From: Escherichia coli
GTDB lineage: Bacteria; Pseudomonadota; Gammaproteobacteria; Enterobacterales; Enterobacteriaceae
DNA: 64,000 nt
Reading direction: 5' to 3' (one strand)
Assembly: GCF_017348835.2 (NCBI RefSeq)
Contig: NZ_CP071375.1
Shown: one piece after another, positions 18,001 to 21,000 of the stretch
Layout of the letters: each line of letters begins with the position of its first letter
Position numbering within the stretch: the stretch's first letter is position 1
Program-made: the position numbers

Positions 18001-21000
18001 CGTGACTGGCCGTGACAGGGAAACCCGCGAATGGCTGGGCTGGGGCCATGCCTGGGTGCATGAAACCGCGGTGGTCAGACGGAAGAGTGAGGCATCCCGG
18101 TTTCAGGATTTTGTGGCCTGTGGAGACATGACGATTGTCCGTCGGGTCGGGGATGACACGGCGGAAGTGGCGGAGTATGTGCGTCGTATTCATGAGGCTG
18201 AGTTACTGGATCATATCGGTATTGACCCGTCAGGTGTGGGGCAGATTCTGGATTCACTGGCGGAAGCCGGGATCCCCGATGAGAGTGTGGTGGGGATAAG
18301 CCAGGGCTGGAAGCTGGGCGGGGCCATCAAAACCACCGAGCGCAAACTGGCTGAAGGGGTGCTGATTCACGGTGATCAGCCCCTGATGGCCTGGTGTGTC
18401 GGTAATGCCCGGGTGGAGCCTAAAGGTAACGCCATTCTTATCACCAAACAGGCCAGCGGACGGGGAAAAATTGACCCGCTGATGGCGCTCTTCAATGCGG
18501 TGTCCCTGATGTCCCTGAATCCGGAACCGAAAAAGAAAGCGTATGAGGTTTTTTTCATATAACCCTGCTCACCCTGTAACCATCATGAACCGCTGCGGCG
18601 GTTTTTTTATTTTCAGGAGGCTGATGTGACTCTTAAACGGGCCTGTTCCCTGCTGACGGTGAAATCCTTCAGTGAGGATGAACGGGTGATCACCGGGATT
18701 GCGTCAACGCCTTCTCCGGATCGGGATGGTGACATCCTGGAGCCGGAGGGGGCGGAGTTTGGCAGTACGATCCCGTTTCTCTGGCAGCATGACCATTCCC
18801 GCCCTGTAGGCCAGTGTACGGTGCGTCGGGTCAGGGAAGGGCTGGAAATCACGGCAATGCTGGTGAAGCCGGAGCCGGGGATGCCCTCCCAGATGGCAGC
18901 CCGGCTGGATGAGGCCTGGGCTGCCATTAAGACCGGGCTGGTCAGGGGGCTTTCTGTGGGCTTCCGGCCCCATGAATACACTTATCTGGACGGAGGCGGA
19001 CTGCATTTTCTGCGCTGGGAGCTGATGGAGGTGTCTGCCGTCACCGTGCCCGCGAATGCGGAATGCACCATCCGGACCATTAAATATTTCGACCGCCCGT
19101 TTTCTGCCGCGTCCGGCAACCGGAAACCGGTGGTGAAAATCGCATCTTCTGCCGGCGCTTCGGCACAGTCAATAACCTCTTTTCATAAGGAAAAGTCAGC
19201 AATGAATACTGGTGAACAGATTAAAAGTTTTGAAAACAAGCGTGCGGCGCTGGCAGCCTCCCTTGAGGAGATCATGAACAAAGCCGCAGAGGAAGGCCGC
19301 ACACTGGATGTGGAAGAGGAAGAGCACTACGACAACACCGCAGCGGAAATCCGTCAGGTGGATGCGCACCTGAAGCGTCTGCGTGAACTGGAAACCAGTA
19401 AGGCCGCCACGGCACAGCCGGTGAAACAGGCCGGTAACGGGAATGTGGCCACGGTGGCTTCAGCGCCGGTGATCCGTGTTGAGCAGAAACTGGAGAAGGG
19501 GATTGGTTTCGCCCGCTTTGCCAAATCACTGGCCGCGGCTAAAGGTGTCCGCTCTGAAGCCCTGGAAGTGGCCCGTCGTCAGTATCCGGATGACAGCCGT
19601 CTGCATCATGTCCTGAAATCGGCGGTGGGGGCAGGGACCACCACGGACCCGCAGTGGGCAGGCAGCCTGTCTGAATACCAGGAATATGCGCAGGACTTTA
19701 TTGATTACCTGCGTCCGCAGACCATTATCGGGCGATTTGGTCAGGGCGGGATCCCTGCACTTCGTCAGGTGCCGTTCAATATCCGCGTGCATGCCCAGGT
19801 GTCCGGTGGTGCTGCCGGCTGGGTGGGTGAGGGTAAGGCCAGACCCCTGACGAAGTTTGATTTTGAATCCATCACCTTCAGTCATGCGAAAGTGTCGGCC
19901 ATTGCGGTACTGACGGAAGAATTGATCCGTTTTTCCAGTCCGGCTGCTGATGCACTGGTCCGTAATGCGCTGGCGGAAGCGGTGGTGGCGCGTCTGGACA
20001 CAGACTTTGTGGACCCGAAAAAAGCGGCGGTGGCGGATGTCTCCCCGGCGTCCATCACCCATGATGTGAAGGGCACGGCATCAACCGGTAACCCGGATGC
20101 GGATGCCGAGGCCGCGTTTGGCCAGTTTGTGACGGCAAATCTGCAGCCCACCGGTGCGGTCTGGCTGATGTCCAGCACGAATGCCCTGGCGCTGTCCATG
20201 CGTAAAAATGCGCTGGGGCAGAAGGAATATCCGGACATGACCCTGCTGGGCGGGACCTTCCAGGGGCTGCCGGTGATTGTCTCCCAGTATGTGGGTGACC
20301 AGCTGGTACTGGTGAATGCGCCGGATATTTATCTGGCTGATGACGGCGGCGTGGCAGTGGATATGTCCCGCGAGGCATCACTGGAAATGCAGTCTGAGCC
20401 GACCGGCGACAGTACCACGCCGTCCCCGGTGGAGCTGGTTTCCATGTTCCAGACAGGCAGCGTGGCCATCCGTGCGGAGCGCTGGATCAACTGGCGTCGT
20501 CGCCGTACCGCGGCGGTGGCGGTGATCACCGGAGTGAACTACGGCAGTGCGTCCGGCGGCTGAGTCTGATGAGGAGGACGGGAGGCGTGCGCCTCCCGTA
20601 ACAGGTTATGGCAAAGATCCGATATCTGCAGGGCACGCATGATGCCCGGGCCGGGGATATCCGTGATGTGGCACAGCCGTGTGCGGAGGTGCTGGTTCGC
20701 CTGGGGAAGGCGGAGTACATCACAGTGCGACGTCCGGCAGGTCAGAAAAAGAAACGTGATGCGGAGCATGGCGAATGTGGAACCTTTTGCGGCGAACCCG
20801 AAAAAACCAGAAATCAGGACGTGATGTAAAAGAGGTGGGCTGGACCAGCCTGTTTCAGGCGGTGGCTGAGCCTTTTGCCGGCGCCTGGCAGCAGGGCGTG
20901 AAAGCCGATCCGGAAAGTGTCCTCTCCTTTCATGCGGTGTTTTCTTGCATTTCGCTGATATCCCAGGATATCGCCAAAATGCGACTGCGCCTGATGCAGA

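Follow-up and report, generated by a model that had tools for sequence, protein, structure and literature searches.

In phage HK97, the prohead protease (gp4) and the coat protein (gp5) are encoded by two genes, and the portal gene lies before the protease gene. The HK97 protease is said to be targeted by a C-terminal tail, a result attributed to Duda et al. in 2013. Nested protease/scaffold genes are known from phage lambda (C/Nu3), phage Mu (I/Z) and herpesviruses (UL26/UL26.5): a long protease product is accompanied by a shorter in-frame product without the protease, and because both share a C-terminal assembly domain, the protease enters the assembly in a fixed proportion. In the lambdoid Salmonella phage Gifsy-2, one gene encodes a protease, a scaffold-like middle and an HK97-fold coat; this capsid gene fusion is cited in PMC12315714, and the title of Effantin et al. 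2010 (Virology 402:355) on the Gifsy-2 capsid gene appears in PMC8538268. Fusions of an S78 protease to the major capsid protein (MCP) have been recognized in thaumarchaeal proviruses (PMC6563490), and the same kind of fusion has been recognized in the literature in distant lineages (bioRxiv 10.1101/2020.01.10.891226; PMC6563490). Here we analyzed a gene of this kind at positions 18626 to 20563 of a 64,000-nt stretch of Escherichia coli DNA (NCBI RefSeq assembly GCF_017348835.2, contig NZ_CP071375.1), which is referred to in full as the window. Its closest described relatives are PAJU2 gp03, PHROG 617 and the BP-4795/Stx1a/Stx2c head module (Stx, Shiga toxin; Sawaravirus and relatives), all with the same architecture of S78 protease, linker, delta region and MCP. 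The window gene is a member of this lineage and shows no difference of substance from it. A conserved internal start at the beginning of its delta region is a lead that may not have been described.

A tripartite head gene of a known lineage

The first-pass annotation of the window had described a protease-MCP fusion in one 645-residue open reading frame (ORF), and the coordinates, the Pfam matches and an AlphaFold2 (AF2) model all bore it out. The parts of the ORF are listed below (pLDDT, predicted local distance difference test).

18626..20563, + strand: protease-scaffold-capsid fusion ORF; GTG start, 645 aa, 69.4 kDa
18674..19081, + strand: S78 (HK97 gp4-type) prohead serine protease domain, aa 17-152
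18788-18790 and 18953-18955, + strand: codons of catalytic His55 and catalytic Ser110, respectively
19082..19201, + strand: disordered linker, aa 153-192; AF2 pLDDT <50 at aa 153-189
19103-19117 and 19151-19165, + strand: conserved linker motifs SAASG (aa 160-164) and AGASA (aa 176-180), respectively
19188-19192, + strand: Shine-Dalgarno (SD)-like AAGGA within the linker
19202..19204, + strand: internal in-frame ATG, Met193; putative start of a 453-aa (48.4 kDa) delta-MCP
19202..19618, + strand: delta/scaffold region, aa 193-~331, from AF2 and the HK97 gp5 alignment; putative C-terminal boundary
19619..20560, + strand: HK97-fold MCP proper, aa ~332-645, from Pfam PF05065, Foldseek and phmmer

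An AGGAGG motif is located 7 nt upstream of the GTG start. By sequence and by predicted fold, the N-terminal domain of about 150 residues is an HK97-family (S78) prohead protease and is presumably active. Pfam Peptidase_S78 (PF04586) matched aa 48-151 with an E value of 1e-7 and 32.7 bits against a cut-off of 21. His65 and Ser114 of HK97 gp4, which we take to be its catalytic residues, align with His55 and Ser110 of the fusion protein. Among 111 fused homologues with 36-77% identity, His55, Ser110, Gly24, Ala26, Gly42, Gly62 and Ser137 were invariant and Glu135 was nearly so; when HK97 gp4 was included in the alignment, these protease residues, Gly42 excepted, were again invariant. Since the top 50 Foldseek matches of the full-length model were all capsids, the N-terminal domain was modelled separately, and its fold was assemblin/T4 gp21-like.

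The Pfam scan gave no ClpP or S49 family match to the window protein; only S78 was matched. The Gifsy-2 protease is reportedly ClpP/lambda gpC-like and not S78. Because of this difference, the Gifsy-2 and window fusions are analogous structures of independent origin, and the window gene is not of the Gifsy-2 type.

The C-terminal residues, about 310 in number, are an HK97-fold capsid protein, as the first-pass annotation had stated. Pfam Phage_capsid (PF05065) matched aa 386-635 with an E value of 9.4e-15 and 55.2 bits against a cut-off of 24.2, so that the protease and capsid families both scored above their cut-offs. The full-length AF2 model matched the Bxb1, HK97, D3 and T5 capsids in Foldseek with E values of 1e-14 to 1e-9, and phmmer matched the capsid part to 9d9w. 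The model, which was built from an alignment of the 111 diverse fused homologues and had a mean pLDDT of 85.7, supported a protease, a linker, a helical hairpin and a capsid fold in the following segments.

aa 17-152: protease domain, high confidence
aa 153-189: linker, at the pLDDT given above
aa 195-223 and 229-262: long helical hairpin, pLDDT ~97
aa 263-292: little predicted structure, low confidence (pLDDT <50 at 273-279)
aa 293-331: three short helices, pLDDT mostly 86-93
aa ~342 to end: capsid fold, high confidence

The fusion gene is thus tripartite, encoding protease, scaffold and coat, since about 140 residues between the protease and capsid domains form a delta/scaffold region. While the two domains of the earlier description both stood, that description had left out this region and the internal start site at its beginning. 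In the alignment, the counterpart of the scaffold region is the delta domain of HK97 gp5 and the stretch around its K103/S104 cleavage site; the scaffold region has about 139 residues in the window and 102 in HK97. By analogy with HK97 gp5 Lys103/Ser104, the maturation cut is probably made near Lys331/Ser332, and a coat protein cut there would have a mass of about 33 kDa. The window gene resembles HK97 gp4/gp5 in protease family, in the catalytic His and Ser and in a coat fold with its own N-terminal delta region, which in HK97 is removed by the protease; it differs in that protease and coat are fused.

Inside the AF2-disordered linker, the two small-residue-rich motifs SAASG and AGASA are kept. 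In the forms L-A-A-S-G and [P/A]-G-A-[ST]-[GA] they were found in the 109 enterobacterial homologues and in most of the 111 diverse fused proteins. They are candidate sites of protease auto-cleavage.

The fusion is widespread and has been annotated before. Across the head module (16300-23600), identity to long-tailed Stx1a-, Stx2c- and Stx2a-converting phages and to 'PPompW' prophages was 96-98%. Among deposited records of Stx-converting phages the fusion is 95-100% identical; for the protein, the identity is 95-99.5% in BP-4795, Stx2 phage 1717, YYZ-2008 and Sawaravirus records. It falls to 77% in FSL SP-016 of Salmonella and to 48-49% in two more distant phages, PAJU2 of Pseudomonas and RHph_X2_26 of Rhizobium, the PAJU2 gp03 match being 48% over residues 1-642. 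The fusion protein matches PHROG 617 from end to end (E 4.9e-259, residues 1-639 on profile positions 7-626 of 626). The fusion ORF was found in 1251 of 5426 complete E. coli genomes, at up to 7 copies per genome, and among the best 150 representatives of clusters at 50% identity at least 111 were full-length fusions. In strain PE164 the ORF is 100% identical and is named 'phage major capsid protein' by the Prokaryotic Genome Annotation Pipeline (PGAP). The note on PAJU2 gp03 (YP_002284337), which has the same gene order, reads 'prohead protease fused capsid protein', and source names in protein databases include 'putative major head protein/prohead protease' and 'HK97 family phage major capsid protein/HK97 family phage prohead protease'. 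Elsewhere the database names are inconsistent, with 'major capsid protein', 'phage prohead protease' and 'head maturation protease' all in use. Given the annotated near-identical genes of Stx phages, the PAJU2 gp03 note and the S78-MCP fusions in the literature, both the fusion and the gene order are already known, and the window gene is an ordinary head gene of a common lambdoid (Stx-type) E. coli prophage.

Some homologues are longer. In P0123 and P0132 (~1090 aa), the protease-MCP part is preceded by an N-terminal extension of about 440 residues, and P0002 (1079 aa) carries TerL_ATPase, S78 and capsid Pfam domains together; these three are either read-through from terL in gene calling or larger fusions. 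In a literature search, the papers found to mention BP-4795 contained no capsid biochemistry. Two other candidate precedents were set aside: a preprint on the cyclic oligonucleotide-based antiphage signaling system (CBASS), which concerns a protease-scaffold fusion of a different phage, and a paper on Sp5 morphogenesis, which concerns short-tailed Stx2 phages.

A conserved, putative internal start at the protease-scaffold junction

Met193, directly after the linker, aligns with residue 1 of the separate MCPs of Burkholderia vB_FUBS1 and Moraxella Mcat6. An in-frame ATG with an SD-like motif was present at this site in four fused phages (48-77% identity), with AAGGA-N10 in the window, AAGGA-N9 in SP-016, AGGAGG-N8 in PAJU2 and AAGGAG-N6 in RHph. 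When near-identical E. coli loci from a viral-contig scan were compared, codons 186-190 (TTT CAT AAG GAA AAG) and the ATG were invariant in 60 distinct alleles, while linker codons 179, 183, 185, 191, 192 and 195 varied.

We then extended the comparison at the DNA level to 15 diverse fused genes, namely the four phages and eleven further representatives. All 15 had ATG (10 genes) or GTG (5 genes) at the Met193 site, and all 15 had a GGAG, AAGGA or AGGAGG motif 6-11 nt upstream of it; where the encoded residue was Val, the codon was GTG in each of the 5 cases. In a scan seeded with PAJU2, each of 50 unique fused junctions of the PAJU2 clade had ATG, and the median SD energy was -10.8 kcal/mol, at a median 0.4th percentile of the respective ORF. 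Start codon and SD were therefore kept in 65 of 65 fused junctions read as DNA. At the protein level, 102 of the 111 fused proteins had Met within 11 residues upstream of a conserved EQI anchor, compared with 24% for a random 12-residue window; Val occupied the equivalent position in 7 of the other 9, giving Met or Val in 109 of 111. Positions -3 to -5 before the internal start were enriched in K, E and G in the 111 proteins, and K-G/E-x-x-x-M was kept in all 109 enterobacterial homologues.

The pattern suggests, by analogy, that the conserved internal SD and ATG follow the same logic as lambda C/Nu3, Mu I/Z and UL26/UL26.5. In those systems, however, the shared part is a scaffold separate from the coat, whereas in the window it would be scaffold plus the coat itself. 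On this sequence evidence, we rate at somewhat above even the chance that the gene is nested and has two products, a 69.4-kDa protease-MCP and a 48.4-kDa delta-MCP. In the searchable literature, with several key subscription papers out of reach, no description of an internal start in protease-capsid fusions was found.

Several observations weigh against the two-product model. When the SD was tested by shuffling synonymous codons only, the signal was modest (Fisher p = 0.021), because the amino acids K, E and G carry most of it, and these residues could be favored for other reasons in a charged flexible linker. The window has a weak internal SD (AAGGA with a 10-nt spacer; -6.2 kcal/mol, at the 12th percentile of the ORF), and from one family member to another the ratio of upstream to internal SD strength is not constant. 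Because changes between the fused and the unfused state occur within one clade, the retained start could partly reflect a recent unfused ancestry. The comparisons establish the domains, the catalytic residues, the folds and the conservation of the fusion and of the internal SD and start codon; the activity of the protease, its cleavage site, use of the internal start and the proportion of the two products are what we infer. No second start is known to have been reported for the comparable fused capsid gene of Gifsy-2.

The main alternative is a single-product polyprotein, in which only the 69-kDa protein would be made, each coat subunit would bring its own protease into the prohead in the manner of Gifsy-2, and the internal ATG with its SD would be an unused relic of a once separate capsid gene. 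We consider this possible but unlikely. The upstream SD (AGGAGG, -10.3 kcal/mol) is indeed stronger than the internal one, and single stop-codon changes interconvert fused and unfused forms, so that relic starts would be expected. Such a polyprotein is also physically possible, since by our own estimate 415 copies of an internal part of about 36 kDa would fill about 40% of the cavity of a T=7 prohead. However, an unused ATG and SD in a hypervariable disordered linker should decay, yet the start is kept in every junction read and in nearly every fused protein, the start signals are kept across the whole fused-only enterobacterial clade, and the Val codon is GTG without exception.

It could also be argued that the N-terminal domain is a catalytically dead, protease-like extra scaffold, and that maturation cleavage is absent or is performed by another enzyme. 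The modest Pfam S78 score would be in line with this idea, but the invariance of His55, Ser110 and other protease residues in the 111 homologues makes it very improbable, and a Pfam scan of the eight flanking ORFs of the head module revealed no second prohead protease domain. A further reading, that two normally separate genes were joined by error or decay in a defective prophage (through a frameshift, loss of a stop codon or misassembly of the sequence), is effectively refuted by the broad conservation of the fusion, although many E. coli prophages are degraded and the portal and repeat-protein region of PE164 is annotated as a frameshifted pseudogene: the same architecture occurs in the phage genomes of BP-4795, 1717, YYZ-2008, PAJU2 and FSL SP-016, in 1251 genomes and in no fewer than 111 of the 50%-identity clusters, with the catalytic residues kept throughout.

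We therefore return to the two-product model, as part of what we regard, with moderate confidence, as the best explanation: a functional fusion head gene with a tethered, self-removing protease, two starts, and an origin by loss of a stop codon. In this explanation, one frame of a lambdoid prophage encodes an HK97 gp4-type serine protease, a flexible linker, a helical delta/scaffold and an HK97-fold coat. Initiation at the GTG at 18626 would yield the 69-kDa protease-MCP, and initiation at AAGGA-N10-ATG (19188-19204) would yield a 48-kDa delta-MCP without the protease. Proheads would be built from a mixture of both products, the dose of protease being set in translation by the two initiation rates. 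Since the protease is N-terminal to the delta region, which faces the prohead interior in HK97, it would be carried into the shell by covalent attachment, and the separate C-terminal targeting tail of free HK97-type proteases would be unneeded. Once the shell has formed, the protease would excise itself together with the linker and the scaffold, and the coat protein of about 33 kDa would remain.

The proposed origin is illustrated by unfused members of the PAJU2 clade, in which the protease stop adjoins the SD of the capsid gene (TAG-GAGG..TTG, TAA-GGA..ATG and TAA-AGGA..ATG). In three such relatives (L133, L158 and L169), protease and MCP are in the same frame with one stop between them (TAG, TAA and TAA, respectively), so that programmed read-through is conceivable there. 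The CAG-GAG-GGC of PAJU2 is one base from TAG-GAG-G, and the window retains TAAGGA with the TAA out of frame. The fusion may thus have arisen from a split arrangement through loss, or frame shift, of a protease stop abutting the ribosome-binding site of the capsid gene. The unfused proteases of these three relatives end in P-F-x-[IL]-K-x-I, a motif missing in the fused forms. It may be a capsid-targeting tail, and its absence from the fused forms fits covalent tethering having replaced such a tail.

Gene order and neighboring features of the head module

The other features of the head module are as follows.

15685-16050, + strand: HNH endonuclease (Pfam HNH, E 5e-6), directly 5' of terS
16341..16904, + strand: terminase small subunit (TerS), Pfam Terminase_2
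16901..18562, + strand: terminase large subunit (TerL), Pfam TerL_ATPase and TerL_nuclease
20608..20829, + strand: small conserved ORF between capsid and portal genes, 73 aa, phrog_829
20775..22139, + strand: portal protein, 3' of the capsid gene, Pfam Phage_portal PF04860, E 6.6e-81
22136-23521, + strand: repeat protein, 461 aa, after the portal gene

The order in the window is terS, terL, protease-MCP, small ORF, portal and repeat protein, followed by a head-tail adaptor and a head-closure protein. The ORF and Pfam calls thus agree with the earlier statement that the portal gene follows the capsid gene. Its description as atypical holds in comparison with HK97 and lambda only, since this order is the norm of the gene's own large annotated lineage. 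PAJU2 and Stx head modules have the same order of terS, terL, fusion, small ORF(s), portal, post-portal protein and adaptor; the order terL, fusion, small ORF and portal is kept in PAJU2, SP-016 and RHph_X2_26, and the same order was found in five unrelated metagenomic or genomic loci (L093-L095, L099 and L100). Burkholderia vB_FUBS1 and Moraxella Mcat6 have it with separate protease and MCP genes.

The pairing of an HNH gene with the terminase genes is usual in HK97-like cos phages, and FSL SP-016 has a homing-type endonuclease at the place of the HNH gene of the window. The small ORF at 20608-20829 and the start of the portal gene share 55 nt. Throughout the lineage, the capsid-portal position holds an ORF of 55-110 aa, and GenBank records differ on which frame is annotated there.

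Two hairpins flank the fusion gene. A terminator-like hairpin with a T-run is located at 18587-18612, between terL and the fusion gene, and a GC-rich hairpin without a T-run, GGGAGGCG-tg-CGCCTCCC, is located at 20581-20598, directly past the capsid stop codon. In HK97, putative terminators are annotated at places equivalent to both. The two hairpins may tune the expression of the capsid gene.

The portal and repeat-protein ORFs overlap in ATGA (22136-22139), and PHROG 2271 (859 aa) covers both. In PE164, PGAP merged the two into one 'frameshifted' pseudogene, and in GenBank the repeat-protein ORF is named 'portal protein'. Within this ORF, at 22352-23052, a unit of 162 bp (54 aa) is repeated in tandem 4.3 times with 97% identity. 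The copy number varies in 162-bp steps among Stx phages (matched lengths of 7301, 7139 and 6977 bases). The C terminus of the repeat protein has a weak, sub-threshold match to CBM_5_12.

Past the tail module are two stretches of low GC content, at about 38000-44000 and 56000-64000 (0.36-0.44, compared with 0.55-0.58 in the head and tail genes). In the related prophage of PE164, the gene for host-specificity protein J is followed by Lom, tail-fibre genes, a DUF1076 protein and an NleG type III effector.

Meaning for the fusion family

The fusion as such adds little, and its practical value lies in annotation, for example in 'prohead protease/major capsid protein fusion' as a consistent name. 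The junction sequences lead us to lean slightly towards a wider view, in which the whole S78-MCP fusion family would be nested with two products and its lineages would switch between a free, tailed protease and a tethered one through single stop-codon changes. Should initiation at the internal start take place, the gene would show in a simple bacterial setting how translation can control the dose of protease in capsid assembly, with the coat protein itself as the shared part, and it would be a clear case of gene fusion and splitting through one stop codon beside a ribosome-binding site.

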